The position numbers and the translations under genes were made by a program. A stretch of DNA of 63,130 nucleotides, filler included, from Klebsormidium nitens (taxonomy: Eukaryota; Plantae; Klebsormidiophyceae): NCBI GenBank assembly GCA_000708835.1. It is 7 parts of 7 records of this genome, joined end to end, with 100 filler letters (N's around TTAATTAATTAA, not from the genome) between each part and the next. Parts side by side here need not be neighbours in the genome. Positions count along the whole stretch, not along the records: positions 1 to 29,080 come from DF237828.1; 6 more parts are not named here. One strand, 5' to 3'. This document shows positions 6,225-48,320 of the stretch, piece after piece. Below the pieces are notes generated by a model. It was given only the letters and a program-made list of their open reading frames with translations. It made no database searches and had not been told where the DNA came from. Position 1 is the stretch's first letter; every line of letters starts with the position of its first letter.

Positions 6225-9200
6225 TGACAGGGTGGCATCACTCTGCTACATTTGCAGACAACAGATCTGGACAAAGGAGCCTAGCAGCGGTGCACTGAGG
6301 CTGAGCTTCCGCAAATTCAGCACACTGAAAGGCTACCTGATCACTGCCAGCGTGCCTAAGAGCAAGCAGGTGAAACAGCTTCTGTGCCTCAGCTGCGTTG
6401 CCCGCCATTTAGGCTCAGTCGGAGAAAGCGCAGATGGCCTTTCACTGCTGCTCACAGACAGGCCCCCGGGTCTGCAAGATGCAGTGCTTTTTCAGCGGGA
6501 GAGGTCAGGTGCATGGCTGCAGAGGTTGCAGCTTACCGACCAACTCCTGGAGGAGGCCTCCGCGGCCAATGAGGGTGGTAGGAAAAGGAAGAACCCTAAA
6601 AAATCTGCAGCTGAGAGCTCTGGCCGGGGAATGCAGGCTGGCAAGAGACCGCGCGCAGCGTCGGTGAGCTGATGATTATTTTCTTCTTAGATCCTATGAA
6701 TATTTGCAATGCATCAGAAATCGTCCAACAATTGCATCAGCCCGGCCAGATTGTGCTGGACCCATTGTCTTGCATGCGCCCATTTAAAGAAAGGAAACAC
6801 GCGGTCCGATTACATGCTCTTCATGGAATTTATCATTGCTCGCCACCCAAAAGGCTCTTTGTTGGACAAGATTCCACAGGCAGTCTTGACCTGCTCGTTC
6901 CGCTCAGATTCTGAGCATGGTGTGAGGCTGATATCTGAGGCTGGTCAGGAGGTGTATCTGAAGGACTTGGTCGGCCCTTGCAGGCGCTCGAAGGCGGGCC
7001 CCGCAGCATTGCCAGCCAAGCCACCCTCTTCCTCAGTGGCGTGCTAGATGGCACGTGCCGCATGGTGTTGCCGGCGGGCCAGGACGGAGAGGGTCCGCTC
7101 CTCGGCAGGCTGTACCTGACGGCGTGGGATCACAATCGCGCAAAGCCGAAGCCGCTGGGCAAACCTTGCAAAGAGAAAGCACTGCTGGAGGAGGTCTGGT
7201 GGGACACCCAGGGCCGTCTCAATTGTACCTGCGACCGCGGCAGGCTGTCTTTAGAAGCCTCCTGCGTGCACAAGCTGGTCTTGGCGTCCCTCTGCACGGA
7301 CTCCATCGCCAGCAGCTGCCTGCCGACCGCGAAGGTCCTGAGCCAGGGGGGGCTCGTGGTCGAGCATCTGGGCGCAGACTCGAGTGGCACCTTCTATGCA
7401 GTGAGGAACAGTCCTTTGGGAGTGAGCCCTGAGCATAGGATGCTCCACCGGTCCACGGCTGGAGCCTGGTACTGTCAGGGCAAACTCAGCGGCTGTCCTG
7501 CGCAAGAATGCACTCACATCGCGGCGGCCAAGGCTACCCTAGCAGCGGGAAAGTTGCAGCATTGTGAGGGCATCCTTCTCGGGCCGGACGCCCTAAGTAC
7601 GGCAGCTCACTGGATCCTGGAACGGGAGGGTGAGCTGCCGTTGCTTGGCGAGCCGGACGAGCAAAGGGTGCAGAGGGCAGGGTGCGCAATCGGGCAAGGG
7701 GCAACCAATGAGGAGGAGGTCCTGCTGGGATTGATCGCCGGACAGAAGCACGGAGCGGCAGAGTGTCTGGGAGACGAGTGCTTCTGCCGGAAGCATCGGA
7801 TTCTTTTTGGAGAAGCGCGGGTGCCCTTAGACGCCATCGACGAGGCAGAGGCCCCGGAACCGTCGAGCACCGGCGTCGAGCTTTGGAAGCGGGCGCCGAG
7901 GGGTTCGAAATACTGGGCGGACCACGCGGGCGAGCTGCAAAGAGCCGCGCCACGCAGTGCCCCGGAGGAGCCGGCGGAGGACGCGCGGGGGAAGGAGGCA
8001 GTCCACGGCTGGGTAACAGCTTGCAATAGCTGCACTCTTAGCGGGGTGCTGCAAGGGGGATGCAAGCACGCGGAGGGGGAGCGCATCCAGGTGCCGATCA
8101 TGCTGCTGGGGACGGAGGCTCTGCAGGTCACGCAGCCCAAACTGGGCAAGCTCAGCGACTCCCAGCTTCACCATGACCCATGGATCAGCTGCCTCAAGGG
8201 AGGGCCGGTCCGCGTCAGCAAGCTAAGGGATTGCCATTTTCGCGAGCTCAGCCAGCTGGGCATGCTGAGGGCCGCTTGCCCGATTCAGGCACCCCCCTGC
8301 GGCGGCAAATGGGTAGAGCACGTGAAGGCGGCCTTCATCCACGGCTCCACCTGGTCGGAGCCAGTGCAAACGACGATCTACTGCTGCCAGTGCACTAGCA
8401 AGGCGCACACCGTGCACTTTTGTGGGGAACATCTCGGCCTCTACTGCTGGACGCAGGGGACGATCCTGGTTCAAGAAAGCTTGCAGCTCATCCTGAAGGG
8501 AATGCAACGATCGGGATCGGCCTTCTCCGCTGAGTTGGCGAGGGACCAGGAGGCTTTCGCCCGCTCCCCCGACTCGGTCGTTTTATCGGACGAGAGTTGG
8601 CGGCGGGCGAGTCTCGACTTCTTCAGGCTGGTCGGCAGGCAGATCCTCGAGTGCTGTTCTATCTGCGGCGTGCATCCGGAGGTGAGCACTTGTTGCAGCG
8701 TGGTCTCTTCTCTCGTAGTGTCGTCAATCTATGAGGAATGACGGATCCGTCGGCAAGCGCCCGAAGCGAATCTATATCCAAATTTAAATCACCGTCGTCG
8801 AATTCGTCGGGCAATGCAAGTCGGGTCACGTGAGTGGATAAGCTCTGCCTTGCCGCATCCATGCCGTGGCATTCTTCGAGGTTTTAATCGCGCCAGTATT
8901 TCCGCATTGCGTCATCCAATTTGCAAGTCAGGCATGACCCTTGGAGAATGAGTCAAAAGTTGCAAGTCCATACACACTTATATATATATAATAGAACGCA
9001 AGTTTTGACTGTCGGCCAGTTTTGTACGCCTGCGTCGAGATGCAAGATGCTGGCGACAATGATGACGAGGGGGAACCAGTTTCCAATCATTTTGACACCG
9101 TATGGAACCGCGCAAAAAGGCCACTAGAGTTGCGGCATGTTTTTGGAAGGCGAAGGCCATGTTGTCAAGAGTGGTGATCCATTCATGAAACATCAATATA

Positions 9201-11230
9201 TGGTCGAACGCCCGGGGCTCCACCCTAGACTTTTCGATGCTTACGCAAAACGCCTTCGAGCTTCGCAGGTGCTCCTGGCCGATGGAATAGTTGGAGTAGC
9301 AAACTCGGACGGTGGCAAACGGCCGGGAGGCTTAGGGAGTACCTCTCTGGACTGCAGGCGGACGTTCGTCCACCCGAGCCAGCAATCGGGCGGCGAGGCC
9401 CTGGAGAAGCAGTCCATCTCGGGCCGCGATTACTGCGCCGCAGGTCTGGAAGGTGGTGGCATGAAGCGGCGACTCCTGCTGCAGCCGGAGCTCCGCGACC
9501 TGCTTGCACGTCTCTCGCAGCACAGGCCGACGTCAGAGAGACTTGGGCAACGGCTCAGCGAGGCGGAGTACCTCGATCTCAAGGCAGCGCTCGCTCGGGA
9601 GGACGTGAAGGAGGTGGTGCGCTTCACCCAAGTGGAGGGCGAACCGGGCAGNNNNNNNNNNNNNNNNNNNNNNNNNNNNNNNNNNNNNNNNNNNNNNNNN
9701 NNNNNNNNNNNNNNNNNNNNNNNNNNNNNNNNNNNNNNNNNNNNNNNNNNNNNNNNNNNNNNNNNNNNNNNNNNNNNNNNNNNNNNNNNNNNNNNNNNNN
9801 NNNNNNNNNNNNNNNNNNNNNNNNNNNNNNNNNNNNNNNNNNNNNNNNNTTGCGGAGTCATCGGGACATCGGGCGGTCTCTCGGTCGTTTGCAGGCTGCT
9901 GCTGGGGTACGCGGCCACGGTGGAGGACCGGCGGCTGCTCGGAGCTGGCTCGCCAATCCTGCGGCGGTTGCTGGACGCCTACGGCGGCGGCTGCTTCCCG
10001 GCCTTTTTCGCGCCGGCCCTCCACCATCTGTACATTCTGACCGCGCTCGCCCGCGGCTGCACTGGCTTTGGAGACGAGTATCGGGACGGTTGGGTTATAG
10101 CCGCGCTCAGGCCTCTGAACCACGCCGTCGAGCTGTTGCGGATCCAAGCGGAGAGGGGCGCGCTGAACGGGCAGGAGACGCGACTTTTGGCGAATGCTCG
10201 CGGTCTCGCGGAACAGCTGCTGCCCGGTGTGGAGGCGTTGCAGCCGAGCCCGGATCAATGGGCGGCAATGAGCGGGGTCGAGCGGAGCCTCATATGGGAG
10301 CGGCTCGGCGTGGACGAGGAGGGGCAGCAGATGCACCCATTGCCCTCTGGGCATAGCTTTCGAGCGGAGCAGGATTCGCTGGGCCACTACTCCCTCCCGG
10401 GATGGGAACAGAAGCGAGGGCTACCGCACTACGTCACGTTCGAGCACGCTGACGGGAAGAGTCGGACGGGGGAGGAATTCAAGTGCAATTCGGGGCAGAC
10501 GGAGACCGAATGGGACGCCGCGAACGTGCCCGCGGCTGACGCGGGGAGGCGGCAAGGGGAAGAAGGCAAAGCGGCCGCACAAGAGCAGAGGCGCGATGGT
10601 GGTCTGCTGCCCCCATCGCGTCATATACGGCTTCCACGTGATGCTGAGGGGCGAAAGCCCGCGGGACGTATTCGCCGTGCTCTTCACGCGGCTCAACCGG
10701 GAGCACCTCCCCAAATTCGTCGTCTACGACAATGCCTGCGCCCTTCGCAACTACTGCATGCGCCGGGAGCCCGCCTTCTTCAGTGACGTCACCTTCGTCG
10801 TCGACAGGTGAGAGATCGTTATTCTCAATCGCAATCTTGCAAGCGCCTGTTAAAACGTGTACAGATGCATTCACTGTGCAACACATCTTGCAAGGTACGG
10901 AGCAAGTAGCTGAAGAATTGCGATTTTTTGTGCAGGTTCCATTACGCCAAGGCGGGGGCGGAAGTGCATAAATGTGGGCCCTCCAACGCGACCGACTTCT
11001 ACGATGAGCTCCGCTGGGTCAACACCTCAGCGGTCGAGAGCGTCAACAGCTTCTTGAAGAGGTTTAGGACGCTGGGCTGGTACTCGGGATTAGAAAGCTT
11101 CATGATCTTCCTGCCCATTCTTCTCAGTGGGTATAACGTAGATCTCAGGCGTGTAGACGACGCCAAGCTGACGGTAGCTTTGCCAGCCAGGCTTTGGAGT
11201 GCCGCAGTCAGGAGGCTGCTGTTGCAATGA
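6225..11230 (+). mobile_element. Spliced KDZ (Kyakuja-Dileera-Zisupton) superfamily DNA transposase gene with SWIM zinc fingers and a CxC domain
   Basis: SWIM-like motifs (NCTCDRGRLSLEASCVHK; WYCQGKLSGCPAQECTHI), Cys cluster (CPIQAPPCGG...YCCQC...H..CGEHLGL), CSICGVHPE|VLLADG joined across intron 8682-9268, then MVVCCPH..YGFHVMLRGESPRD, YDNACALRNYCMRREPAFF, VDR|FH across intron 10808-10935, NTSAVESVNSFLK. One apparent frameshift near 10500-10560. The 5' end is hidden in the gap. No termini identified. Confidence 0.85.
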
Positions 11231-11247
11231 TAGCAAGTGGAACGATA

Positions 11248-11610
11248 GCCTCGATCCAAAAACCAAAAAACCCAAAACTTTTGATAGTATGCAAATGAGT
11301 AGATGCATCTATATTTTTTTAAAAACATTTCAAATGGATGATAATTTTTGGGTTTTTTGGGTTTTGGTCAGACCCCCACCTCCGGGCCTCTTGCCACTCT
11401 CGCGTCTCGATTGTTGCATTGATGGCAGGTGGAAGGAGAGAGGAGAGGCCTCGATCCAAAAACCAAAAAACCCAAAGATTTCGATAGTATGCAAATGAGT
11501 AGATGATATGTATACTTTTTAAAAACATTTCAAATGGATGATATTTTTTGGATTTTTTGGGTTTTGGTCAGAGCTCCTCCAACCTTGCCTCTTGCCACTC
11601 TCTCGTCTCT
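11248..11610. terminator. Tandem 200-bp duplication, each unit an ~110-nt hairpin abutting the primase-helicase stop codon
   Basis: Arms ccaaaaaccaaaaaacccaaa (11256, 11456) pair with tttgggttttttgggttttgg-like arms ending at 11367 and 11567. The minus-strand TGA follows directly (11368-70 and 11568-70). The terminator function is inferred. Confidence 0.55.
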
Positions 11611-14600
11611 CTCTCGGCCGTTGCCTTTCTTTCATCTAGCTCTGCGCTCGTAAGCAATCTGACGCCGATATAAGGTCTTCCTGACCCGGAACCGTTCTGC
11701 TTGGGTACCTTGGGATGCTTCTCATCCGTAGTAATATTATGACCCTTTAGGGCCTTCGTAATTGCGTGCGTGGTCATTCTAGGGTCGTCACACGATGACA
11801 TTTTATAGGCAGAACAGAAATCCCCCTGTACGATTACCTCGTTTGCTTTGACAAGGCAGTACTGTTCGAGGAAGGTGGATAGCGTATCATTCTCCTTCAG
11901 GTACTCGTTGCAAGCCTTTGTAAAGACTTGGGGTCTGGGCCAGAGCGCCTTTCGAATGTCACCTTTGGCTGTTCGTATCTTGTACCAGTCCCGTGCGCCC
12001 TCGAATGCGACTCGGATGACGTCCTCGATGCCTTCTTTCGATTCGAGATACATCTTCAGACCGACGTCTGCCCTTCGGTGGTGTGGAATGTTTGGGTTAT
12101 ACTCAGAGTCCTCCACGTATTGATTCAAGTACGGCTCTAGAACGATCCTCCGGAGAAGGCCCGCATTCACCTCTTCCACGGGGATACGAGGCTTATTGTT
12201 CGTCAGCAGAACCAGCTTGTGGGTCGGGATGAAATTCTTCATCTTCTCGAATAACTCTCGAGCCGATATCTTCCCCCCTCCCGTCTGCTCCTTGATCGTG
12301 GCTGCGTTGATGGTCTGGCCATCGTCCAATTCGTCCGCAAGGCCGAAGCGAACGCCTTTCAATTGAGCCAGATGGCTGCTTGCAGCACTCGCAGTGTCGT
12401 CTTTCGTCTTCATGAATATGTGCTTCGAGCAGATGATTGCATACTCGCCCCAAGCTGCGAGTATGGCCTGCTTCAAAGCTCCCTTCCCGTTCCCCCCCTC
12501 GCCCCACCAGAAATTGACGATCTCCTCGTCCGTATATCCGGACATACCGTACCCCAAATAAAGAATCTTCCAGCGCACGACATCCTCGTCGTTATTCGCG
12601 ATATCCAGCAGGAATTCCTTAAACTTGGATCGTGTTCCGGTAGGTTTGGCATGGTATTCGCCTCCTGCGACGAGGCTGCAGAGGTGCGACGGGTGCGGCT
12701 TCATGAGTTCGCCCGTGGGGATGTATCCGACACCGTTTTGAAAATTCACGAGCAATGGATTCTCGTTCATGTGCGACGACAGATCGGAGACGTAGAGGTC
12801 CGTTACGACGTAGTGAAGGCACTTCTTGACAATTGTCGGATCCTGCACGTTGAATCTAATCTCCGGGAGTATATTCCCTGCGAGCTGCTTGCATTCGTCC
12901 CTGAGGAGCTTGTTTTTTGGATCTTGCACGTGTTTTTGCAATGTCGCTTGATCGAGATCCTTGAGACCTGGATTCGATTCGCACAGCTTGTCAGCAAAGA
13001 GCTTCTTGAAAAGTACCACAAATTCCATCCCGTACCAGCTCAAGAGGGCACCCATCTGAGCCGCAAAGACGCTCAAGACCTTATTACATGTGTCCTCCAC
13101 CCAACCGCGGCCATCCCAGTAGAAAAAGGTCTTCCTATCTCCCGTATTCAATATGCGGCCTTCGATCTTGTAGATGTGGCTGAAGATCTTGGCCAGACCT
13201 GCAAAAGGCTCTCCATTTCCGTCCCTGGCGACTTCGGCAACAAAGGCGAGAAATTGGCTCTTACCTTGTTCCCGGTACTTCCTAAAGAGGTTCATCTGAT
13301 CCTGGGGGGAGACCGCTTCGTTGGTAGCGTCTTGGAGCCCAGCCTCTAGGGTCAGCTCGCCCAGCTTTCTTACCGGCTCGTGGGAACAAAGATCACCATG
13401 GCAGCGGTAGAATACGTCGCGCCCGCGCTTCAGGAGGTTGAAATTATTACTGCCGGAGTGTTCGCGTCCGAAGAAGCACGTCCTGGGCCCGGTTGTGCGG
13501 AAGCAGTAAAATGTACCATATAGACCGTGGGGGAGCGAGCTGCCGTACGTGCTCGACGAATCGTTCGCCTTCTCCTTTAACAGCTTCTGGAGCTCTCGCA
13601 CGAGCGAGCCATCTTGCAAAAATGGCACAGGCTTCGCACCCGCCGCAACCAACTCGACCGGCCTGGTTGGCTGGACCGGCTCATCTTCTGATGCTAGATT
13701 CTGGTCAACTTCGCCACAGCCGTCGACAGCGGGGCCCGGTGGGGCACTGTCCGGGACGGCGATCGAAGGGGCGGCACCAGTTGAGCGGCCTCGGTTGATA
13801 GTATCGACGAGCCACGCAGGCATAGCATGTGGAATTCCGTCGCCCTCAGGTGCCCAAGAGTAGCCGCAAGATTTACCGTGCTTACCCAGATACCGAGCAG
13901 GAGGTGCGTAAAGGAGACCTNNNNNNNNNNNNNNNNNNNNNNNNNNNNNNNNNNNNNNNNNNNNNNNNNNNNNNNNNNNNNNNNNNNNNNNNNNNNNNNN
14001 NNNNNNNNNNNNNNNNNNNNNNNNNNNNNNNNNNNNNNNNNNNNNNNNNNNNNNNNNNNNNNNNNNNNNNNNNNNNNNNNNNNNNNNNNNNNNNNNNNNN
14101 NNNNNNNNNNNNNNNNNNNNNNNNNNNNNNNNNNNNNNNNNNNNNNNNNNNNNNNNNNNNNNNNNNNNNNNNNNNNNNNNNNNNNNNNNNNNNNNNNNNN
14201 NNNNNNNNNNNNNNNNNNNNNNNNNNNNNNNNNNNNNNNNNNNNNNNNNNNNNNNNNNNNNNNNNNNNNNNNNNNNNNNNNNNNNNNNNNNNNNNNNNNN
14301 NNNNNNNNNNNNNNNNNNNNNNNNNNNNNNNNNNNNNNNNNNNNNNNNNNNNNNNNNNNNNNNNNNNNNNNNNNNNNNNNNNNNNNNNNNNNNNNNNNNN
14401 NNNNNNNNNNNNNNNNNNNNNNNNNNNNNNNNNNNNNNNNNNNNNNNNNNNNNNNNNNNNNNNNNNNNNNNNNNNNNNNNNNNNNNNNNNNNNNNNNNNN
14501 NNNNNNNNNNNNNNNNNNNNNNNNNNNNNNNNNNNNNNNNNNNNNNNNNNNNNNNNNNNNNNNNNNNNNNNNNNNNNNNNNNNNNNNNNNNNNNNNNNNN

Positions 14601-14905
14601 NNNNNNNNNNNNNNNNNNNNNNNNNNNNNNNNNNNNNNNNNNNNNNNNNNNNNNNNNNNNNNNNNNNNNNNNNNNNNNNNNNNNNNNNNNNNNNNNNNNN
14701 NNNNNNNNNNNNNNNNNNNNNNNNNNNNNNNNNNNNNNNNNNNNNNNNNNNNNNNNNNNNNNNNGGGGTCTGCGGCCGTTGGCCTGACGTCAGATCGAGC
14801 GCCCGGGGTCAAACCCTCAGGGTATTGTTGAGGAGCCTGGAGGCCTGACGCTGACAAGCTGGCGAATGTCACAGAGGAGCTGCAGGTGTTCATGGCGCTG
14901 AGCAT
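11568..14905 (-). CDS. Virus-type Prim-Pol + Zn-binding + D5_N + SF3 (D5-like) primase-helicase, copy A, intronless over sequenced part
   Basis: Open frame from the gap edge (13920) to 11568: Prim-Pol tail GLLYAPPARY..GYSW, C..G.EH.SNNF..Y.C....C, NFQNG (D5_N), Walker A WGEGGNGKG, Walker B FGLADELDDG, motif C LLTNNKP, RRIVLEPY. The N-terminus runs into the 13921-14764 gap; the start at 14905 is tentative. Confidence 0.9.
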
Positions 14906-15006: not shown

Positions 15007-15339
15007 ATGTCAGACACGATCAGCAACCTACCCACAAAGGGCACTTACGCAGAGGAGATATTTACCTGTGAGTGTCGGCACTGCTTGACGGCTCGGAAAT
15101 ACAAACTGCGGAATCCGGATGCTCAAAACCGTTCTATGGCCGAATACTATCAGCGAAACAAAGATACCCTCCTCCTTGATCAAGCATGGCTGCGATACAA
15201 ACGAGGCGTCAATCTCCATTTGAAGACGCTCAACAAGCTCAAACAAGCTGGCTTCCCCGTAGAAATGACCGCTGGTGCGCCAGCCTCTCCGCCTACAAAG
15301 AACGATCTAATGCACTTCGTCGCAGTCGAGGCCGCTTAG
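15007..15339 (+). CDS. Small virus-like hypothetical protein (CxCxxC, YYQRNKD motif)
   Basis: 110-aa ATG ORF whose end overlaps the end of the convergent recombinase ORF by 4 nt. The basic ..AEYYQRNKD.. segment resembles small virophage/NCLDV proteins. Confidence 0.6.
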   Translation: MSDTISNLPTKGTYAEEIFTCECRHCLTARKYKLRNPDAQNRSMAEYYQRNKDTLLLDQAWLRYKRGVNLHLKTLNKLKQAGFPVEMTAGAPASPPTKNDLMHFVAVEAA

Positions 15340-16099
15340 CTTTTTGGCTTTCTTTCGTACTCTCGCATTTGCGTGCCGATTGAATGGAGCATCCTAGACG
15401 CCACGTATTGCCTGTCCGCCAGGGAGGCGTCGTTCTGGTACCGGTCGGTGAGAAAAATGTGCCTCAAGTGGTTGATCGTTAGGTGCCGACCGTCAGAAAA
15501 TGGGATCTCGCGTATGAATTGCGTCAGGTACTCGTCGTTCATAGGCTCACCCAAGTTGCTGAGCAACGTCAGGAAATACGCTCGAGGTACGAGTTCTATC
15601 GAGCGCTTTATGTAACACGAGAGCCGCTTCGGCATCTCGAATCGTTGCTCCCCGTACTTCTTCGCCGTCTTGAACGACTTTAGAACGAGTACATAGGTCT
15701 CGGTGTCTCCAGACTCCTTCAACACGTTTCCGNNNNNNNNNNNNNNNNNNNNTAGTGCTTTTGGATCAAATCGATGATCCGATCCACATCATTTTTGATC
15801 CAATCTAGGGTGTCCGGCAGGGTATCGGCCGAACACAAGAGGCGATGGACCGCGTTCAAAGACTTGACATACTGAGCGCACGTACTTTCGGCTCTGCCCT
15901 CTCCCTCCAGCAATTTTGCATGGCACATGGCCGAGCCACAGTGAACGACTCTCACGTCATCATCCACAGCTGGTCCCTGCGTGGATATCATGAATATATG
16001 TATATATGAGATAGTATTTTCAGAATACTTCGAGTTCAAAACGACGTCCCCCTGACCATCATAACCCGAGCTCATGCTTTTCCAAGGGAGGCGGTTCAT
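15336..16099 (-). CDS. Tyrosine recombinase/integrase of virophage / Polinton-like-virus type (gap-interrupted)
   Basis: C-terminal catalytic set: GN...YVLVLKSFKTAKKYG (Lys), TINHLRHIF (HxxR), MLHSIGTQMREY (His...Tyr). N-terminal part EGRAESTCAQYVKSLNAVHRLL. The first catalytic Arg would lie in the N gap at 15733-15753. The start codon is uncertain. Confidence 0.8.
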
Positions 16100-16318
16100 G
16101 TTTTTAGGAGCGGCAGGGACACAAATATCGACTGATTCGGAGAAAAGTGCATTAGGTCGGATTTTAGAGACGCGGTATTTTCTGAAAATACCGATCCAGG
16201 GATTCTGGCAGATAAGGGGGCATGTTCGGCTTTAATAGTGCATTCGGCCTGACGATTGGTCGGGTACTGGGCATGATTTTAAGAGGTTCGAGACATTTAT
16301 CTGGAGTGCCTCCGGGCG

Positions 16319-16864
16319 ATGAATTTATATACCGAGGCCTACTGCATTTTTTCATTGCATTCGATTATGGAAGAGGACCAGCCTCTCGAAGAAGGTAAAC
16401 ACCGGCGTTCGTTTCGGGTTCTCAAAGCTCTTGACATGCAGTCCAGTGATCAAACCACGAGACTGAGTGAAACGCGGTTGGAGATCGATGCCCAAAAAGG
16501 GAGGGTGGTTCAGGCGGGTTCAAGAGCTGGATCTTCTCTATTTCGACTGCTCAAGACGGATTCTCGTAAGTCCGCAACCCTTCCCTACGCATGCAGCGTT
16601 CTGCTACAGGAAACGACGAGAAGCAGCAAGCACAAGCAGTTCGCATATTCCGTCTCTCTTCGTGCGTTACCTGAAAATCGGAGGCCAGAGGGAATGAAAT
16701 TCCAGGGAAGCTACCGAACGACGGCAACGAAACTGACACTCGAAGAATTTGATGCATTGTTATCAACAAGCCAAGCCGCGAGGTTGACAGCCAATGTCAA
16801 GGATACAAAGATGAGGCGTATTGCACTTACGAAGAAGAGTCGAATGCCAAGTCCTACTGCTTAA
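16319..16864 (+). CDS. Hypothetical protein (likely ATG 16367)
   Basis: 181-aa open frame tightly packed between the recombinase and the next ORF. No recognisable motif. Confidence 0.4.
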   Translation: MNLYTEAYCIFSLHSIMEEDQPLEEGKHRRSFRVLKALDMQSSDQTTRLSETRLEIDAQKGRVVQAGSRAGSSLFRLLKTDSRKSATLPYACSVLLQETTRSSKHKQFAYSVSLRALPENRRPEGMKFQGSYRTTATKLTLEEFDALLSTSQAARLTANVKDTKMRRIALTKKSRMPSPTA

Positions 16865-16926: not shown

Positions 16927-17403
16927 CTAGCCTCTGGCGCTGGCGGCAAGCCGGTGGTACGTTTTGCACTTTGCTGGATTGGCAAGCATGTCGAGCATCA
17001 AGTCATCCGAGATGAGGTACCGCAACTCAGCGACTTTTTTATCCATCGAATCTTCTTGCTTTTTACGCACATCATTGCAAGCTTCTATGCGTTTGCTGCT
17101 ATGCTCTGATCGTTTCAAAACACTCCCCCATTCGACTAAGAGGTCGTAGGGATCCTTACACCGATGCACAACGATTCCGGCTTTTTGCAAACCGCGGCAA
17201 ACTGCATTGACAAGATCCGACATCGAGTATAGGGGCAGAAGTCCCTTAATTCCTGCAACATCGCCTAATTTTAAAATCATATTGTGTGTGTGTTCCATTT
17301 CAAACGTGCGTTTGATCCTGTTGACAGATTTATCGAGGCAGTCTTGATAGAATTGCCGAATTTGATTCCTTGTTTTATTATGGGCTGTCAACATTTCTTG
17401 CAT
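16927..17403 (-). CDS. Giant-virus-like conserved hypothetical protein (DUF5759-like pattern)
   Basis: YQDCLDKSVNRIK...GLLPLYSMSDLVNAVCRGLQKAGIVV...LLVEW matches my recollection of the Y..iL....rIk...G.PlY......i...L...Gf.V....l.isW pattern of NCLDV proteins. Needs an HMM check. Confidence 0.6.
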   Translation of the reverse strand: MQEMLTAHNKTRNQIRQFYQDCLDKSVNRIKRTFEMEHTHNMILKLGDVAGIKGLLPLYSMSDLVNAVCRGLQKAGIVVHRCKDPYDLLVEWGSVLKRSEHSSKRIEACNDVRKKQEDSMDKKVAELRYLISDDLMLDMLANPAKCKTYHRLAASARG

Positions 17404-17459: not shown

Positions 17460-17965
17460 CCAGCGTGTTCAGGGTGTTCAGAGATCTGCACAAACTATTT
17501 TGAGAGGGCGAGGAAGAGGGGTGGGTGAGAAGCGTGTTCATGGTTTCAGACATCTGCGCAAACTATTTCCACGTGGCGAGAAGTTAAGGCGCGCTCTTGC
17601 ACAGTAGAGTGTTTCCGCTGCTAGAGCCATTTCTGTGGTTTTCCAATTCAATGCTTAGAACTGGATGTGCGACCAACTGTATGTTTGAGAGAGCGATGCC
17701 GACTGTTTGCATCTGTTTTGATTACAGCATTTATTTTTTGTTGAAACCCTTGCTAAATTTTCTACAGTCTTGCATCTTGTGCGCCTTACGGCGCAAAACT
17801 GAGCAAGTCAAGTATGATGAGTCAGCTTTAAACGTCCAAAAGAAATCTGCACGAACATTGTCGCCGGTGCAGCGCGGTGGCGCCGCGTCATCTGAAAAGG
17901 GTTTGGTCAAAACCTTGAACATATTGAACATCTAGACTAGCCCCAAGTTAGCCTAGCCTAGTTGC
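17460..17965. repeat. TGTTCA-motif copies plus a ~350-bp block homologous to 28060-28425
   Basis: Forward motifs at 17464 and 17535. From 17610, ttccgct..agagccatttctg, tgcttagaac.gatgtgc.acc and tttggtcaa.accttgaaca..tgaacat.ctaga..agccc...gttagcctagcct are shared with 28060-28425. Confidence 0.85.
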
Positions 17966-18272: not shown

Positions 18273-20216
18273 ATGGCGCCTATCATCCGTCAGTTGCTGC
18301 TCTTTCCCTTGTGCATATCAATGCTTCTCGCTTTTGAGAGCTTCAGGCCGGTGACAGCCCAGTTTTCACTTGATTCGGAGACCCTCCGAACCAGGTACAA
18401 GAAGGAATGGGACCTAGTATCTTCTCTTGGTGATGAAGCTGCCTTTGCTTCATATGATGGAACGCAGACAAACGAAGCAAGGGTGTTGACCCATATTACA
18501 GGAACTTGGGATTCAGGCGGGCTCAATGACTGGCTATGGGCACGGGTTTCGAACTTGAGTGCGAACTCCAAGCATGTCGTAACTTCCACTTTTCAGGGGN
18601 NNNNNNNNNNNNNNNNNNNNNNNNNNNNNNNNNNNNNNNNNNNNNNNNNNNNNNNNNNNNNNNNNNNNNNNNNNNNNNNNNNNNNNNNNNNNNNNNNNNN
18701 NNNNNNNNNNNNNNNNNNNNNNNNNNNNNNNNNNNNNNNNNNNNNNNNNNNNNNNNNNNNNNNNNNNNNNNNNNNNNNNNNNNNNNNNNNNNNNNNNNNN
18801 NNNNNNNNNNNNNNNNNNNNNNNNNNNNNNNNNNNNNNNNNNNNNNNNNNNNNNNNNNNNNNNNNNNNNNNNNNNNNNNNNNNNNNNNNNNNNNNNNNNN
18901 NNNNNNNNNNNNNNNNNNNNNNNNNNNNNNNNNNNNNNNNNNNNNNNNNNNNNNNNNNNNNNNNNNNNNNNNNNNNNNNNNNNNNNNNNNNNNNNNNNNN
19001 NNNNNNNNNNNNNNNNNNNNNNNNNNNNNNNNNNNNNNNNNNNNNNNNNNNNNNNNNNNNNNNNNNNNNNNNNNNNNNNNNNNNNNNNNNNNNNNNNNNN
19101 NNNNNNNNNNNNCAGCACATTCTGATTAACACTCGTGGACAGTCTTTTCTCTGCTCACCGGGGATAGCCATTGGGAGTTATACGCACTTTCCTTATAGTG
19201 AGGTTGTTATTAATGGCACCAAGAAGATTGCTTTTAACGAGGCCTTTGACCTTGAGAATCTACCTCCAAGCAATGTATCAGACTGTTTGACCGCCGCACC
19301 AGTTGGGGTAAATGTTGCTTCAGCTGTTGCGCAGCGGCAAAATTTGATTGAGACGGCAGAGTCTACTGTCAATGGACTTATGACATTCTTTGGAGAAAAC
19401 TTTTGGAAGAATCTCCTCACGCTCAATAGTCGCGTTGGGGAATGCCAGGTGTTTGGATATGGTGACAATCCGGAAGCTTGGAGTACTCCTATATCCCTAG
19501 GGTTCAAAACCCCAGGATCGCAGCTGTGTGAAAACCCAATTGGTGAACTCCTAAACCTTTATGTAAATGGTACTCCGGGGACTTTATCGGGATTACAGGT
19601 TTTTGCTGCAAGCGAATTCAATGACTTATTCCACGTGATCCACGAGAGGCGTCTTAGGGGATGGGTTGAACAACAAAGTGCAAGGGTACAACAAAGGGTT
19701 CAATTGACTTACCCCACTGCTTCCTCCACTGAGATCTCTTTGGCTATAGTGACTGTTCTCACCGCCCTCTTTGCTGGAGACTGGGTGCAGACGTCCATTC
19801 ATAAGTTTGCAAACGATTTAAGTCATAAGTGGAATATTCAGGGTATCCGGAGGATGTTCCTAATATGGACATTTGTTGGAGTAGCAGAGCTAGGCGAAGT
19901 GGGTATCGAAGTTTGGCCCCTTGTAGGCTTGGCCTATCGTGAGTACAAGGCCAGCAGGGTCGTGGATGTCTCCTGCGACATTGGAGCTGAGACGTCTGCC
20001 GAATCTCGGGTATACAATCAGTTTGTGGGAACATTGTCTGTTATCTGTTCCTTGGTCTCATATACCCGTACAAGATTCATTGCTATACTAATTGCAACTG
20101 TGTTCTTGGTTAGCGCTAGCTTGGCTTTGGCTGCTTGGAGGATCTTGCACATCAAGAAAACATTGAGTACGATTGGTTCGCAGAGCAAACCGGAGTTGGG
20201 CTTTGAAAGCTTATAA
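18273..20216 (+). CDS. Orphan membrane protein: signal peptide, large extracellular part, ~3 C-terminal TM helices
   Basis: The same frame is open on both sides of the 18600-19112 gap. Hydrophobic N-terminus MAPIIRQLLLFPLCISMLLAF; hydrophobic segments EISLAIVTVLTALFAG, MFLIWTFVGVAELG and FIAILIATVFLVSASLALAAW. A possible 5'-UTR acceptor precedes the ATG. Confidence 0.7.
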   Translation: MAPIIRQLLLFPLCISMLLAFESFRPVTAQFSLDSETLRTRYKKEWDLVSSLGDEAAFASYDGTQTNEARVLTHITGTWDSGGLNDWLWARVSNLSANSKHVVTSTFQGXXXXXXXXXXXXXXXXXXXXXXXXXXXXXXXXXXXXXXXXXXXXXXXXXXXXXXXXXXXXXXXXXXXXXXXXXXXXXXXXXXXXXXXXXXXXXXXXXXXXXXXXXXXXXXXXXXXXXXXXXXXXXXXXXXXXXXXXXXXXXXXXXXXXXXXXXXXXXXXXXXXXXXXXXXXQHILINTRGQSFLCSPGIAIGSYTHFPYSEVVINGTKKIAFNEAFDLENLPPSNVSDCLTAAPVGVNVASAVAQRQNLIETAESTVNGLMTFFGENFWKNLLTLNSRVGECQVFGYGDNPEAWSTPISLGFKTPGSQLCENPIGELLNLYVNGTPGTLSGLQVFAASEFNDLFHVIHERRLRGWVEQQSARVQQRVQLTYPTASSTEISLAIVTVLTALFAGDWVQTSIHKFANDLSHKWNIQGIRRMFLIWTFVGVAELGEVGIEVWPLVGLAYREYKASRVVDVSCDIGAETSAESRVYNQFVGTLSVICSLVSYTRTRFIAILIATVFLVSASLALAAWRILHIKKTLSTIGSQSKPELGFESL

Positions 20217-20874: not shown

Positions 20875-21500
20875 TCCCCAGCGTTCAAACATCTCGCAGA
20901 CTATTCGCAAAGGCCGGAGCCGGTGTAGAGGTGGAGGTGTTTAGACATCTGCGCAAACTATTTCGAGAGGCTAAACAAAAGGGAGGCCGGTTTATACAAC
21001 GGAAGGCGTGTTCAGGGCATTTGGGCTTCTGCCAAGACTATTTCCAAGTGGCGAAGAATATTAAGAGGCGACTTTTGCACGGAGGCATGCTCGTTTAGGC
21101 TTGTGCGCAAACTATTTCCACGTGGCAAAAGTCAAGAGTGGGGCTCCGGTCTTGGACAATGGAAATCGTGTTCAGGATGTTCAGGTTTGTGCGCAAAGTA
21201 TTTCCACGTGGTGATAAGTTAAGGGCCGCTCTTGCACAGCAACATGCGTGTTCAGGAAGTTCAAGCTTTTGGAAAAATTAATTTAGGAGCCAAGGAGAGG
21301 GGCCGGTCTTGCACCGTAGCATGCATGTTCATGATGTTCAAGCTTTTGGACAAACTAATCTTGGAGCCAAGAAGAGGGCCGGCCTTGCACGTGGTCAAGC
21401 CCGTTCACAAATCCGTACAAAACTGGCAAACAAGTGGGGCGGTTTTGCATGAAGGCATGTTCAGGATGTTCAGACATTTGAACAAACATTTTTCAGATGC
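20875..21500 (+). repeat. Direct array of ~70-80 bp units each carrying one forward TGTTCA-motif
   Basis: Examples: 21169 cgtgttcaggatgttcaggtttgtgcgcaaagtatttcc; 21246; 21325 catgttcatgatgttcaagcttttggacaaacta; 21458. Units are separated by ...tcttgcac. Confidence 0.9.
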
Positions 21501-21633: not shown

Positions 21634-24578
21634 CTAACTACGTGCATAGACGCTCTTGACCCCCGGATAATACAGCTCCCTCTTTCCGAAAACGTTGACG
21701 GCCTTCCCGCTTCGCTTGAACCCCTTCCCCTCCATGCGCTTCTTCAACGCCTCGGGTTTGATTTCCTCATGCGAGAATTTGTTGTAGTCGTCGACGAAGT
21801 CATGCTCGAGAGTCTCCAGGCCGGTTCCCCGCAGGCAGTGCTCATCCAGAAACCGCTGCAGCATGTCGCAGTCTTCGAAATAGGCCCGCGTCGCCTCGAC
21901 GACTTCTGGCGGAGTCTCGCCGAGTCCCTCTCTGTAGTATTCGACAGACTCGCGCGCGAGGAGGGAGAGCAACTGCTCCAGGACGTCGGGAGCTAGCATG
22001 CGCTCCTTCAGGCCGGTGTTTGCAAGCCGGTGGTCCGGATTGGAAGGGTCGAATTTGTCAGCCGTCACGTAGGTGTTTGGAAATCGGAAAACTTCGATAC
22101 GCCGGCGGAAGTTGTCGGCCTTCGGATTGGTCCCCGGGGGCAGCAGGGGGGGGTTGTTGGTCTGGATGAAGGGCGTGTGGGTTAGCGTGAACTCCACGTT
22201 CTTTGTGTAGAGTTCGCGGGCCACGATGTCGCCCCCGCCGCACGTGGATAGAACCAGGGCCGCATCCACACACTGCGATTTGTCCGTCTCGTCCGATATG
22301 ACCATCCGCTTGCCCTTCAAGGCGAAGAGGTAGTGGGTCGGCGAGCCCTTCGAGGCAGGCCGCTGTCCAGGGGTTTTGACGACCGCGTCCGTGGACATGG
22401 TGCCGTAGTATGGGCCAAATGCCGCCTTGATCGCCTCCTTCCACACTCCCTTACCATTCCCTGCAACGCATTACGAATCTTTGACTACCTTCTTTTTCTA
22501 TTGAATTAAATCTGATTTTGTAAAAAAGAAGGACATTAAACATCCATATTTCTATTGGAACTAAAGGGCCACTGACAGGACGCCACAACGGTCCTTCTCC
22601 TCGGCTCTTGAAAATAGTTTACACAAAAGTGTGAACATCTTGAACATCCTACAAATGGCTCACCTCCGAGCCCGATGAGAAAGAAGAGCTTCTCCTCCCG
22701 AGTCATGCCGTTTGCTGCATACGCAAAGGCGCGTACAAAACGCCGGATGAGCCCCTCTTTGGCGTTAAAGATGTCCCGCAGGAACTCCAGGGGAACAGGC
22801 GAGGCGTGGTCCAGCCCCTGCAATCGGTGGAAATGCTCAGACAGTGCTACACCTTTTCGTCTCCGTTTTCCAATAATCGCGACCATTTGCAAACGACGGA
22901 GGGGGCAAGAGGCGAGATCGGAACGAGTTGCGAGATGCTCACCAGGTAGCGCAGATCGATCATACGAGTGCACATGTACTGCGGCCGGTGGGTGTCCAGG
23001 TCGCCCGTCTTTAGCTGCCAGATTCCGTTGCGGCAGTTGATGATGTGGACGTCCTTATCCAGCAGAGCAAACAGGTCGGGTGCGTACATCTCGCCCTGCA
23101 TGACCTCCATCGTGCTCTTGATCGCGGACGAGTTGTTATAATTCTTGATGCCTTTGATGATCTCTTCCAGTCTCTGAGCCTTCTTCTTGTCCTTCTCGTT
23201 TTTCAACTCCTTGCGCAACCGCTCACGTACTCGATCGTACACGCTGCTGAGCTGGTGCATCATGACGAACCGGACGTACGCGCCGGTGGGATCCTCTTCG
23301 TAGTGCTTCCCATTCCAAAAGTGCCACTTGTTGTAAAAGAACACTCTGCGTAGTAGAAAAGAGAGATTGTATATGCCTCCGCCGATGTACCAGAAAGTTT
23401 GGCCAAAAGACTGAACGTAATAAAAACGCTTCGATACTTTTTCTACAGCCGCTTGCATGTTGGTATCAGTTTGCAGCCCACATTCGACACCCACCAGCGT
23501 CTCAGATAGTGTGCGCAGAAGCTTGAACTACATAAATATGTCGGACCCGCGCAAGTACCTGCCGCAGGATGAGTACATCTGGCTGGCGATATGGCTCCCG
23601 CCCATGTCCCCCTGGAACGCCCAGTGGTCCACGAAGCGCTTGTCCAGCGTCCGATACATGCTCTCGTCGTCGGCGGAAACGGGGGCGACCTCTCCGCCGA
23701 GCATGGCCTCGTATCGAGTGAGCATCCCGATCTGCTTCAACGGGCGGACTTCGCAGCACTCGCTGCTGTTGCAGGAGTAGAGCAACGCTCGGCCGCGGAC
23801 GAGGACGGAGAAGTTGTTCGAGCTGTGCTGCTGCCCGTAAGGGCATTTGCGCTGTCCGTGAGCTCTGTATACATACATGTCGCCGGCTGGGTACTTCTTG
23901 AGCTTGTCGAAGGTGGAGGTGGTATCTCCCGCTTTCGCGAGACACACCCGAATCCTCTCCAGAACCGCCGGTTCGGCGTCGCCGCCCCTCTCGGTCGGGT
24001 CCGGTTCGGACGTGGGAGCCCAGAAAGGCTCGTGCTTGACGGAGTCCCTGAAATACACAACAGCATTGAACGGTCGGCGGCAGCTTGAACTTTCATGAAC
24101 GGCTGCATACCTCATGCGTCTCCATGTTCAGATGTTCAGGAAATGGCACAAGATGTTCTCAACCACTCCAGAAGTGGTGCAACGGTTGCAGCTACCGGAA
24201 AAAACTTGGAGAAGCAGATGGCATCCTAGAACAAGCCTCACCTGGCGGCTGCCCCCTCGCCGTTGATGACCGCGATCAACCAGTCCGGCATCGCCCTCAG
24301 GTTGGATCGGTCCTCCAGGATCTCTTGGATCCACTCATACCGCCGCTCCTCGCCGTCTAGGGCTCTGTAGCTACTCGGATCACAGAATATGAGCCCTCCG
24401 TCTCCCCGAGTGTCGATCCCGACCTTCTCATTTCGCCACGTGAGACCTTGCCGGCCGCCGCCGCTGATTAGACCCGCTTGCATCGAGGCCGACAGGGAGA
24501 AAAACAGGTGGACGCCTCCGTTTTCCGTTCGCTCATGCGGGGTATCGTCGGGCAAGACGTCATACAGTTCCACCATCT
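21634..24578 (-). CDS. Spliced virus-type Prim-Pol/D5-like SF3 primase-helicase, copy B (exons 24578-24242, 24047-23559, 23345-22943, 22817-22664, 22460-21634; further 5' exon(s) likely)
   Basis: Four GT-AG introns (24241-24048, 23558-23346, 22942-22818, 22663-22461) give one continuous frame of ~736 codons. Motifs: Prim-Pol TENGGVHLFF and GIDTRGDGGLIFCDPS, D5_N INCRNG, Walker A GLGG|NGKG split by the last intron, Walker B VISDETD, FIQTNNPP, RRIEVFRF. An acceptor ctttctcag precedes 24578. Confidence 0.9.
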
Positions 24579-25254
24579 CTGAGAAAGCGATGTGTAACGA
24601 TTACGACTAGTTAAGCCTAACCTCGTTCTCGACAGGATTTCGTTGACCGCGAGTTAGCGAAACGGCGGTGGTTACGTCTTAACGACGCACTGCGTGGCTG
24701 TCTGCAAGATGGCGTAATATCCCGGATGGATCGGCTTCAATGAGCCGATGTCACCGTTCAGGATAAGTTGTGTTCGGCTTTGCCGTTCGATGCAGCCAAG
24801 CTCATCTGTGCGTTCTGCACAGCTTGCGTGGCTGGTCTTGTCAAAGGTAGTGGACAAGAGAGAGCTATACGATTAGCCGCATAATCCACGTTGTATGTAG
24901 AGCTGTATGCTATTGATGCATATCTAGTCAAATCATGTATCGTGACGTGCTGATCTGTCTCGACTTGTGGTGATCCTCATCGCGACAGCGCAACGTGCTC
25001 AACATATGTGGATTCAATTGTCTTATCTCTTGACATGGCTTTCTGATCGTGGATGAGACGTGATCAACCCATATCGAGGGCAGAGACGTTGAGACGTCTT
25101 CTCGACATGGCTCTTGTGATTTCATCAAGCGTAAAGAAGCAAGCGCCTTGCGAGGTGCGAGTCTCGAGACTCCTCGACTGAATATGGAGCCTCNNNNNNN
25201 NNNNNNNNNNNNNTTGACGAATAGGTCCAACGTACACACAGGGAATCCGAGTTT

Positions 25255-27900
25255 GTGAAAGTGGCGAGCTGCAGCGACGCATTTGTCTACGGCTGGCTCC
25301 GTTGCCTCTGCTGTCGCCTCCTGCAAAAGCCGGAGACCGAGATTACTTTGCGCAAATTCCTGAACCCTCTGAACATAATGAGGAAGGCTACCAGACTGGG
25401 CATGCATCCGGCTGTTTATGATGTTCAAGCTTTTGCTTAAACTATTCTGAGATCCGAGGTCAGTCGACGTACCTCTGCTGTCGCCTCCTGCAAAAGCCGG
25501 AGACCGAGATTACTTTGCGCAAATTCCTGAACCCTCTGAACATAATGAGGAAGGCTACCAGACTGGGCATGCATCCGGCTGTTTATGATGTTCAAGCTTT
25601 TGCTTAAACTATTCTGAGATCCGAGTTCAGTCGACGTACCTCTGGATCGTCGCGAGTGGCTTCAACATCTGCCGCCGGCCGTGGGTCACTTGCTTCGATC
25701 TCCATGCCAGCCTGAGCTGCTGCCCCTGCCGCCACCTGGAAATGCTGGAGACCGATAAAAGTTTGGGCGAATCCATAAACATCTTGAACATACGTACGGC
25801 GAAGGCCAAGGCTACCAGACTTGGCACGCATCCAGATGTTTTTGATGTTCATGCTTTTGCCCAAATTATTATGAGATCCAAGGTCAGTAGGTAGGCTGCC
25901 TCTGCTGCCGCCACCTGGAAAAGCCGGGGACTGAGATTACTTTGCGCGAATTCCTGAACTCTCTGAAAAAGGACAAGGAAGGCTACTCGGCAACGCATCC
26001 GGATGTTTGTGATGTTCATGCTTTTGCCCAAACTATCTGAGATCCGAGGTCAGCCGACCTACCTCCGACCCGTCGGGAGTGGCTACCTCAGTTGCCTCCG
26101 GCCGTGGCTCTTGATCGATCTCCATACCAGCCTGTGCTGCTTCCCCTGCAGCCGCCACCTGGAAAAGCCGGAGTCCGGGTTTACTTTGTGCGAATTCCTG
26201 AATACTCTAAACGGGACGAGGAAGGCGACTTCGAACGCATCTGGATGTTTACGATGTTTATGCTTTTGCCCGAAGTATTATGGGATCCTAGATTAGTAGA
26301 CGTACCTGCGACCTGTCGCGAGTGGCTTCCTCAGTTGGCTCCGGCCGTGGGTTTGCTTCGATCTCCATACCAGCCTGTACTGCCGCCTCTGCTGCCGCCT
26401 CCTAAAAGATGCCGGAGGCCGAGAAAGGCTTGCGCAAATCCATAAACACTAAGATGCTATTAGACTCGGCAACGCATCGGAATGTTTATGATGTTTATGC
26501 TTTTGCCCAAAACTATCACGGGATCCAAGCTCAGTCGACATACCTCTGGATCGTCGCAAGTGGCTTCCTCGGCTGGCTCCATCCGTGGTTATTGTTTGAC
26601 ACCTTCGCACCATTTGGCAACAGTGGATGCGGTCTTCCACAGCGACAAGCGTGTTCAAGATGTTTGGACTTTTGGACAAACTATTTTCATGTGAGCGAAG
26701 GAGAAGGGGCAGGCTTTTGATGGGTTTTGTCAACGTGGTACCCCCTCTGGATATTTGATGTCCTTCTTTTTTACATGATCATCTTTTTTATTAATAGAAA
26801 AAGAAAGACATTAAACATCCATAGTGCTATTGGAACTGGAGGCCATTGACAGAACTCTGGTCCTCTCCTTGGCTCTTTGAAATAGTTTGTCCAAAAGCTT
26901 AGACACCTTGAACAAGGAATCGAGAGGTTTTTCTCTCGCCTAAAGTCTTTATGGGTTCCAGAGTGAAAGACCTACCCCCGAGTTGCAAATGGCTTCCACA
27001 GTCGCCGGCTCTTGCGGCATGGTGCCCACTGCCGCTGCCTCCTGGATCAGCCAGAGACCGAGATTAGTTTGCGCAAATTCATAAACATCCTAAACATAAA
27101 GCCTCGGCGGCTGTCGCTGATGTTCATGCTTGTGCGCAAACTGTTTATGGGATATTGAATCATATACCAACCTCTGGATCGTCGCAGGTGGCTTCATCAG
27201 ATGGCTCCCGCCGTGGCTCTTGTTGGATCTCTATACCGGCATGTACTGCTGCCGCCACCTGAAAGAGCCAGAGACTGAGAGAATTTTGCGCAATTCCATA
27301 AACACCCTGAACAAGACAAGGCATGCTACCAGGCTGGGCACGCATCTCGATGTTTATGCCGTTTATGCTTTTGCCCAAAACTATCACGGGATCCAAGCTC
27401 AGTCGACATACCTCTGGATCGTCGCAAGTGGCTTCCTCGGCTGGCTCCGGCCGTGGCTCTTGATCGATCTCCATACCAGCATGTACTGCCGCCTCTGCTG
27501 TTGCCTCCTGGAAAAGTCGGGGACCGAGATTAATTTGCGCGAATTCGTGAACACCCTGAACAGGACAAGGGGCACGCATCCGGATGTTTAAGATGTTTAC
27601 GGTTTTGCCCAAAACTTTTCTGGGATCCAGAGTCATAGACCTACCTTTGGTTCGGTTGAAGTGGCTTCCACATGTGGCGACCGCATCGGCTCTTCTTCGT
27701 GTTCTGCCGGCGGTTGCTCAAAGTTGTCCAGCCTCGTGTCCAGCTCCAAACCACTCTCTCTTGCTGCCACTGTCGCTGCCACCTGGGAAGATCTCAAGAA
27801 TAGTTTGCGTCAGTTCCTGAACATCCGAACACCGATTGGAAGATTTTTAGACAGTGCATGCATCTTGGTGGTTCAAGCTTTTGCCGAAACTCTAAAACAG
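25255..27900. repeat. 2.6-kb array of degenerate ~170-250 bp units with head-to-head TGTTCA-motifs
   Basis: Each unit reads tttgcgcaaattc.tgaac...tgaaca, then a ~30-nt spacer, then tgtttatgatgttca.gcttttgcccaaacta. Near-exact 167-bp tandem copy at 25305-25640. A long palindrome at 26652-26912. Confidence 0.92.
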
Positions 27901-28059
27901 TGGTAGTTAACTCACCACTTTGCAGGCGGGTTTTTGTCGCTTGCTTTTCTTAGGCAACCTCGTCTTCGTGCGCTTTGTGCTTTCGTTACCGAGCACGACA
28001 GCCTCTAAGCTAGTGGTCATGCTACTTACGTATGCCGGAGAAGTAGGCGAGTACAGTGA

Positions 28060-28425
28060 TTCCGCTTCAAGAGCCATTTCTGGACTGTGTTTTTCCATCT
28101 CAAAAGGCGGAGTTTCAGTGCTTAGAACCGATGTGCAACCGTGCTGTGGAGGGAGCAATGCTGACTAGCTTGCATGTGTTTTTGCTTCCGCCACTGTTTC
28201 GAAGCGCTTGCGAAGCTTTTACAGTCGTGTATCTTGTGCCGACCTTTGAACCTTTGAACCTTGCAGCAGCTTTCAGCAAGACTTTGAACACGAATTGAAA
28301 CCTTTGCACGAACGTTTGCGCACGGAGGCCATCGACGGCTGTCGCTGGCGCGATCGGAAATACTTTGGTCAAGACCTTGAACAGTCTGAACATGCTAGAT
28401 CAGCCCTAGGTTAGCCTAGCCTGAT
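28060..28425. other. Second copy of the conserved block ending gttagcctagcct (element end or bidirectional promoter)
   Basis: Colinear homology with 17610-17965 in the same orientation. In both cases the block lies upstream of a minus-strand primase-helicase. Confidence 0.75.
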
Positions 28426-29080: not shown

Positions 29081-29180
29081 NNNNNNNNNNNNNNNNNNNN
29101 NNNNNNNNNNNNNNNNNNNNNNNNTTAATTAATTAANNNNNNNNNNNNNNNNNNNNNNNNNNNNNNNNNNNNNNNNNNNN
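29081..29180. other. Artificial contig-joining spacer (also 42273-42372, 50023-50122, 54276-54375, 57238-57337, 59729-59828)
   Basis: An identical 100-nt N block with central TTAATTAATTAA (stop codons in all six frames) occurs six times. Confidence 0.95.
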
Positions 29181-42272: not shown

Positions 42273-42372
42273 NNNNNNNNNNNNNNNNNNNNNNNNNNNN
42301 NNNNNNNNNNNNNNNNTTAATTAATTAANNNNNNNNNNNNNNNNNNNNNNNNNNNNNNNNNNNNNNNNNNNN

Positions 42373-47995: not shown

Positions 47996-48080
47996 CAAAC
48001 TTTTGAATTTTACACCGACCGACCGACCGAGCTCATAGCAGTACGCGCGCGCTCGCGTAGAAAGTGCCCAATCAAGCCCC

Positions 48081-48320
48081 GTGTAGGGTTGTAGGGTGTA
48101 GGGTATGTTTTACTTCCCTCATATTCATTTTCATTCCCACTCCTTATGAGATAAAGAATAACCCTACATACCCTACATACTCTACATTCAGTATATATGA
48201 AAAAAGAAAAAGGTATTAAATTGACACTGAAGTAAGTGTCATATGAGTTCAAAGTCAATAGTGTAGGGTTTTATCAAAGATCTACGCAACCCTACACAAT
48301 TCAGCCAAACCCTACACTGA
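48081..48320. repeat. TGTAGGG / CCCTACA inverted-repeat (hairpin) cluster
   Basis: gtgtagggttgtagggtgtagggtatg (48081) vs accctacataccctacatactctaca (48161); agtgtagggtt (48260) vs aaccctacac (48288, 48308). Confidence 0.8.

Follow-up and report, generated by a model that had tools for sequence, protein, structure and literature searches.

An intron-bearing primase-polymerase/helicase family of Klebsormidium nitens, probably long-resident and spreading by DNA copying

It is probable, in our assessment, that the minus-strand gene ending at position 21634 (copy B) belongs, as an interrupted member, to a multi-copy Klebsormidium Prim-Pol/D5_N/SF3 family that is long-resident, spliced by the host and spreading by DNA copying. 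The window (the whole 63,130-nucleotide stretch of K. nitens DNA that was analyzed, filler included) consists of seven scaffold pieces split by filler linkers of 100 bp each (29081-29180, 42273-42372, 50023-50122, 54276-54375, 57238-57337, and 59729-59828), so nothing past 29080 adjoins the locus described here. Copy B and its relatives, copies A and C, all lie on the first piece (1-29080, DF237828.1) with N gaps between them; this scaffold is short and gapped, N letters making up 2.8 kb of the piece. Separately, the later pieces carry LINE-like endonuclease/reverse-transcriptase remains (42375-45228) and a copia-like retrotransposon (59949-62401), both judged from translations; a 92-bp near-perfect inverted repeat (47419-47510 / 47874-47965) within 47419-49651, beside which lie two related-looking, low-GC, intronless ORFs without a Pfam match (48457-49008 and 49076-49648); and a PIF1-like helicase ORF (57374-59359, E 1e-18), possibly Helitron-derived, with an unnamed ORF (56794-57237) on the piece preceding it.

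As the initial annotation proposed, copy B reads as one open frame through four GT-AG introns, and its five exons contain no stop. On the minus strand, the exon at 24242-24593 encodes the C-terminal half of the Prim-Pol domain with the catalytic His motif, the DxD stretch being absent from the assembled sequence; intron 1 (24048-24241, 194 nt, phase 2) separates it from the exon for a Cys/His-rich, putatively zinc-binding region (23559-24047) with conserved C, H/C, C, and C columns. Intron 2 (23346-23558, 213 nt, phase 2), which holds two copies of a 33-bp motif, is followed by the D5_N exon (22943-23345; Pfam PF08706, E 5.5e-16), intron 3 (22818-22942, 125 nt, phase 0), and the exon running into Walker A (22664-22817). 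Intron 4 (22461-22663, 203 nt, phase 1) carries the same motif and falls inside the Gly that precedes NGKG, thereby splitting Walker A, as had also been proposed. The last exon (21634-22460) encodes the SF3 helicase from NGKG, which completes Walker A, through Walker B and motif C to the stop; TIGR01613 is above cut-off on P0224, the public protein model in which each of the five exons occurs verbatim and under which a spliced model of B is already in the public annotation. The limits of introns 1 to 3 and of the exon running into Walker A rest on the exon model together with contig joints. A palindrome-like repeat at 26651-26915 has arms that are 78-83% like most of intron 4, the matching segment being 26748-26914.

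The predicted junctions are seen in probable transcripts. All four joints are exact in contigs from 4/4 public runs of three studies, and these contigs skip exactly the four introns, with CT..AC ends on the plus strand. The four runs are presumed to be RNA, the library type being a guess; the presumption is supported by run X8, in which an unspliced contig of exon and intron 4 has a depth of 3.3 beside spliced contigs at 84, and in which a KDZ relative is likewise spliced, at two GT-AG introns (8679>9267 and 10804>10933). Of 28 contig records aligned to B, one is at least 99% identical, three are at 95-99%, 16 at 90-95%, and eight lower. Since most are 90-95% like B and a single record reaches 99%, the splicing evidence concerns paralogues rather than the expression of B itself. 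Thus, the GT-AG introns of B-type genes are removed in transcripts, as seen in paralogue contigs from runs presumed to be RNA. The reading of intron 2 as coding sequence with one stop is ruled out by the contig joint and by alignment to contiguous relatives.

Toward its 5' end, copy B extends beyond the start at 24576 that had been given for it: the exon reaches 24593, and the start of the Prim-Pol domain is found in a further minus-strand exon (25214-25320; 54% in a tblastn search with P0218, E 4e-5; preceded by a YAG acceptor at 25321) that enters a 20-N gap (25194-25213). Between this gap and the exon at 24593, a 600-bp stretch (24594-25193) with no gene-family homology and no AG at its edge breaks the domain. 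Paralogous contigs match B to 24593 and then enter a DxD-bearing primase stretch that is absent from the assembled window; the DxD stretch of B may lie in the 20-N gap. The primase active site has both DxD and His in P0218, P0232, and P0226, and, read by hand, in the 5' extension of the paralogous contigs, whereas in B only the His motif is assembled. Upstream, about ten tandem phase-0 exon-like units, acidic and Ala-rich with motif-bearing spacers, occupy 25321-28077 on the minus strand and are predicted to form the N-terminal tail of B; the corresponding exon/motif array of C lies at 4508-5354 (minus strand), separated from C by an N gap. Given the 600-bp insert in the primase domain and the upstream exon-like units, B is probably a copy, now interrupted, of a gene whose introns number many more than four. 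That B is a 5'-truncated gene was dropped once the primase start was found at 25320-25214.

Copy C (2557-3812, minus strand; 83.5% nucleotide identity to B) is a broken fragment running from the intron-1 acceptor to the intron-3 donor; its exon 2 contains a stop and its exon 3 is disrupted by indels. The proposal that C shares the intron positions of B holds for intron 2, the intron-1 acceptor, and the intron-3 donor, but not for intron 4, before which C ends. Comparison of exon 2 between B and C gives a dS of 0.44 and a dN of 0.057 (ratio 0.13, p 1e-12), and purifying selection has acted between them in the past. This selection signal and the multi-copy cluster described below bear out the view that the spliced lineage kept duplicating and was maintained. 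The broken end of C closes in a short microsatellite and adjoins an intronless glyoxalase-like ORF (1923-2309; Pfam E 0.003, below cut-off).

Copy A (11568-14905, minus strand) belongs to an intronless Prim-Pol/D5_N/SF3 family. Its N-terminus (14905-14765) and body are separated by a gap (13921-14764), and the stretch said to be continuous is indeed open for 783 codons over 11571-13919. The model P0001 was ruled out as a second, 99% identical copy, being identical to A over residues 1-620 and from the same locus; its predicted intron near 11.9-11.7 kb is taken here as a model artefact, as the frame is open there and relatives align across. Next to A lies a likely tyrosine recombinase (15336-16231, minus strand, with a 20-N gap inside), a call that rests on an Atlas value of 0.98 to a tyrosine-recombinase cluster, mostly Preplasmiviricota; the candidate has no Pfam or PHROG match and contains what we take to be the catalytic motifs of these enzymes. 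Around it are three short intronless ORFs at 15007-15339 (plus strand), 16319-16864 (plus strand; predicted fold of low confidence, pLDDT 36), and 16927-17403 (minus strand; weak DUF5759 match below cut-off). Together, A, the likely recombinase, and the short ORFs likely represent the layout of a Polinton-like replication-integration module, the shared feature being an AEP/SF3 replicase adjoining a likely tyrosine recombinase; A is thus a member of a separate intronless family placed as in Polinton-like viruses. Among the ORFs scanned in 1-29080, no double jelly-roll capsid or packaging ATPase was matched in Pfam, PHROGs, or NCBIfam, libraries that may miss such capsids, and no B-family polymerase; of Nucleocytoviricota genes, the core set MCP, PolB, A32, and VLTF3 gave no match in these ORFs, only the sub-threshold DUF5759 appearing. 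No terminal inverted repeats bounding 15-30 kb occur in 1-30000, only short motif-derived inverted pairs. Copy A, the recombinase, and the gene at 18273-20216 have almost no contig cover in the four runs, which we do not take as silence.

Several further features of this neighborhood were recorded. The gene at 18273-20216 is an intronless 647-codon ORF, with a gap inside, that has signal/membrane-like segments, a GC3 of 0.47, and no match in Pfam, PHROGs, or NCBIfam. A tandem duplication (84%, about 190 bp) of the 3' end of A at 11220-11609 meets a KDZ-type transposase gene (6983-11212, plus strand; Pfam KDZ E 5.6e-5, below cut-off) that stands tail to tail with A. Contigs differ from this gene by 1-nt indels at 7220, 10308, 10313, and 10533, the last in two runs, and this KDZ copy may be frameshifted or mis-assembled while its relatives are spliced. 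Elsewhere, DUF5832 adjoins another A-clade model, P0017, and P0008 is an A-clade chimera whose N-terminal 46 residues are 87% like A and whose body, near P0009, is 42% like A; comparison of P0008 with 14905-14765 and 13919-11631 suggests domain swapping among A-type genes.

Copies A and B share the order Prim-Pol, Cys/His region, D5_N, and SF3 helicase; in both, PF08706 and TIGR01613 are above cut-off, and Walker A, Walker B, and motif C are present. The initial annotation took them for the same gene before and after intron gain. Neither part is supported: the two are 26.7% identical in amino acids over 744 columns, their best DNA match is only 32 nt (E 0.07), and they fall into separate clades, each of which radiated in Klebsormidium. 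Our trees were built on subsets (93/197 matches and 57 rows for quick trees, 26 rows for the careful tree). The A clade (19 rows, SH-aLRT 100, quick tree) is made up of long ORFs, many of them predicted with no splicing model, whereas the B clade (16 helicase rows, SH-aLRT 95, quick tree; 100/100 on four full models in the careful tree) is almost entirely fragments cut at Walker A, plus the spliced K. nitens models P0218, P0232, and P0226, which are 64%, 46%, and 44% identical to B. It is very improbable that B derives from A as its intronless precursor, or that A arose from B by retrocopying with loss of the introns, even with their common domain order and a distance of 6.7 kb. The AU test rejects a clade uniting the subfamilies to which A and B themselves belong (p-AU 6.5e-7), and B is more similar to the contiguous genes P0044 (37%), which may itself be a transcript, and P0028 (33%) than to A. 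The quick tree joins B to P0044 at 92, a grouping not rejected by the test (p 0.34), and the careful tree joins B to A plus P0109 at 69/69, setting the whole A and B clades side by side in a deep sister relation that would accommodate one old retro-loss. A recent precursor or retrocopy relation between A and B is refuted.

The term 'viral' applied to these genes holds at the family level only, since IMG/VR yielded nothing closely related to A, B, P0028, or P0044. In scans of that collection, B matched one weak locus, the A alignment matched 80 loci at 24-31%, and P0028 matched four at 25%; nothing was matched by A itself, the alignment of B-type proteins, the recombinase, or P0044. Further contiguous relatives (P0050, P0189, P0191, and P0045) sit on contigs of 0.1-2 Mb, two of them on one 2.03-Mb contig, and intronless multi-copy versions may thus exist in another large genome.

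As to the age of the introns, gene calls give both the nearest full-length relatives (P0028, P0029, P0053, and P0044) and the members of the A clade as uninterrupted ORFs, so the history requiring least is that the introns were gained once, on the stem leading to B. Intron sites in relatives were inferred from protein ends rather than DNA. GNGKG is held by 12/36 B-clade fragments, and in 12/12 of these the sequence leading up to it is unrelated, its final residue being A, V, S, L, or I instead of G, as fits a phase-1 CAG/TAG acceptor at the intron-4 site; the other fragments (24/36) either start downstream of this point or correspond to different exons. Within the P0226 subfamily (44% to B), P0228 breaks off exactly at intron 2, and P0227 diverges from the model precisely at the intron-3 site; P0213, of the 64% subfamily, breaks off at intron 1. 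No locus was returned by metagenome scans that used the B alignment or the last exon of B. Because introns 2-4 stand at shared sites in relatives 44% identical, the gain would be old, with no recent step from A to B, and the four introns were likely gained once, long ago. Of the proposal that they were gained after entry into the nucleus, the gain in an ancestrally intronless gene type stands; it may have taken place in a host chromosome or in a nuclear virus. An introner origin was rejected: the four introns share only a short motif, and the match of intron 4 to 26748-26914 starts 17 nt inside the donor.

The B family is repeated in the genome and has diversified. One 90% cluster has 19 members (15 listed), two seemingly on one contig by equal lengths, and several B-type subfamilies that are 44-64% alike coexist in one species. 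Many copies are truncated or frameshifted (B, C, P0046, P0190, and P0200), and the full models P0218, P0232, and P0226 keep Walker A, Walker B, DxD, and His. The 33-bp motif has 37 matches in 1-29080, of which 11 are the seeds, none in the other 34 kb of the window, and none in five shuffles. Introns 2 and 4 carry it, and intron 1 has a variant of it; it is further found as inverted pairs between the 5' exon units and in the flanks, where six plus-strand copies cluster downstream of B (20928-21495) and an inverted pair lies between the A module and B (17465-17931). Equal lengths of contigs suggest that 6/30 B-family metagenome contigs also bear an A-type gene, with 0.26 expected at random in 100 Mb, although repeats cluster anyway. 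All six linked contigs come from the B/P0218 subfamilies, and the remaining 24/30, some of 135-156 kb, have no A-type gene among the matches listed. For named K. nitens models, 1/7 B-type scaffolds (DF237828.1) also has an A-type gene among the matches listed. GC3 is 0.78-0.83 in B, 0.75 in a host kinase, and 0.64 in A, and no CpG depletion is seen in A, B, or C.

As a plausible mechanism, the B family would spread at the DNA level, as or inside a nuclear mobile element, carrying its introns along; copies keep their introns and so would spread without reverse transcription. The host spliceosome would make B-family mRNA, and the encoded protein would prime, polymerize, and unwind DNA, thereby copying the DNA that carries its own gene. 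The 33-bp motif in introns and flanks is a putative binding site or origin, and integration might occur via DNA breaks or a neighboring recombinase. B-type copies beside A-type modules could be the second replicase of one element or could have inserted there. We infer mobility from these features, and against it counts that this stretch yielded neither element ends nor a target-site duplication, an empty site, or an extrachromosomal form. A bolder reading, which we hold only tentatively, is that the B family forms a class of eukaryotic self-copying DNA element not described before: a primase-polymerase-helicase gene on its own that lost its viral capsid, acquired spliceosomal introns, strewed its own binding motif through introns and flanks, and copies itself into DNA breaks or rides Polinton-like integrase modules. 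If so, the family would be nuclear, intron-marked proof that AEP-SF3 replicases move alone.

Two other explanations were weighed against spread of a long-resident family by DNA copying. In the first, which is rather unlikely, a single temperate virus or large element has both A and B as replicases, B serving as an intron-bearing, host-like latency gene and A as an intronless gene of the productive cycle, and the introns would have arisen in a nuclear virus. The A-B linkage on DF237828.1 and on six of 30 contigs by equal lengths is consistent with this, as are the punuivirus, reported to have introns in 61/506 genes with enrichment in latency genes (10.64898/2026.10.09.758095), elements described with a second replicase (10.64898/2026.10.13.758929), and several giant-virus inserts reported in Klebsormidium (PMC5294986); but the 24 other contigs, with no A-type gene among the matches listed, the confinement of the linked ones to the B/P0218 subfamilies, and the lack of a match to capsid, packaging ATPase, or B-family polymerase among the scanned ORFs of 1-29080 argue against it. 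It is quite unlikely that the family consists of domesticated host genes, or of passive cargo of a transposon such as KDZ, multiplied by segmental duplication. Such an origin would fit the host-like GC3, splicing in three studies, the long acidic N-termini, a Klebsormidium subtile transcript fragment (P0204) that falls in the B clade, and the presence on this scaffold of a KDZ gene whose relatives are spliced, yet many copies are truncated or frameshifted, as listed above, divergent subfamilies coexist in one species, and no conserved single-copy member was seen.

In the family proposed here, the introns serve as an internal marker, since any copy that has kept them came from DNA, not RNA, and was expressed via the spliceosome. 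Intron sites shared across 44%-alike subfamilies would mean long nuclear residence under selection, unlike the decay of most viral inserts, and they bear on whether introns in algal viral genes precede or follow integration (PMC9693826). AEP genes have been proposed, though not proven, to move alone, with 12 copies in Bodo saltans virus (10.64898/2026.10.13.758929); the B family makes AEP-SF3 movement without an integrase testable. Prokaryotic gene finders in surveys of endogenous viruses would fragment such genes, as with the relatives here. A literature search, with paper supplements and most subscription papers outside its scope, found no published description of the B family.

Among known systems, the AEP-SF3 replicase of Polinton-like viruses (Polisuviricotina) resembles A and B in having a primase domain fused to an SF3 helicase, and its pairing with a tyrosine recombinase is reported (10.64898/2026.10.13.758929; PMC10120064). 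Polinton-like endogenous viruses are described as intronless in PMC10120064, whereas the B family has at least four old introns that are spliced, and this locus differs from such viruses in that no capsid or terminal repeats were found. The phage and plasmid P4-family primase-helicases and the poxvirus D5-like helicases have D5_N, TIGR01613, Walker A/B, and motif C in common with A and B, but A and B add an N-terminal Prim-Pol (PF09250) and the Cys/His region, and B further adds a long acidic tail and introns; phage relatives are only about 25-31% identical. Viral inserts with introns are known in algae (PMC9693826; 10.64898/2026.10.09.758095; PMC11244446), and algal giant endogenous viral elements, including punuivirus, likewise hold virus-type genes with GT-AG introns in the nucleus (PMC9693826; 10.64898/2026.10.09.758095). 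No giant-virus core gene was matched on the scaffold of B, and in the Klebsormidium row of a table in PMC5294986 the D5 entry is apparently empty. Unlike these elements, B represents one family with the same intron sites across 44%-alike subfamilies and many scattered copies. Intron-rich mirusviruses, DNA viruses which are thought to replicate in the nucleus, are reported to have spliceosomal introns in their genes, like the B family, so introns need not postdate integration (PMC12768974).
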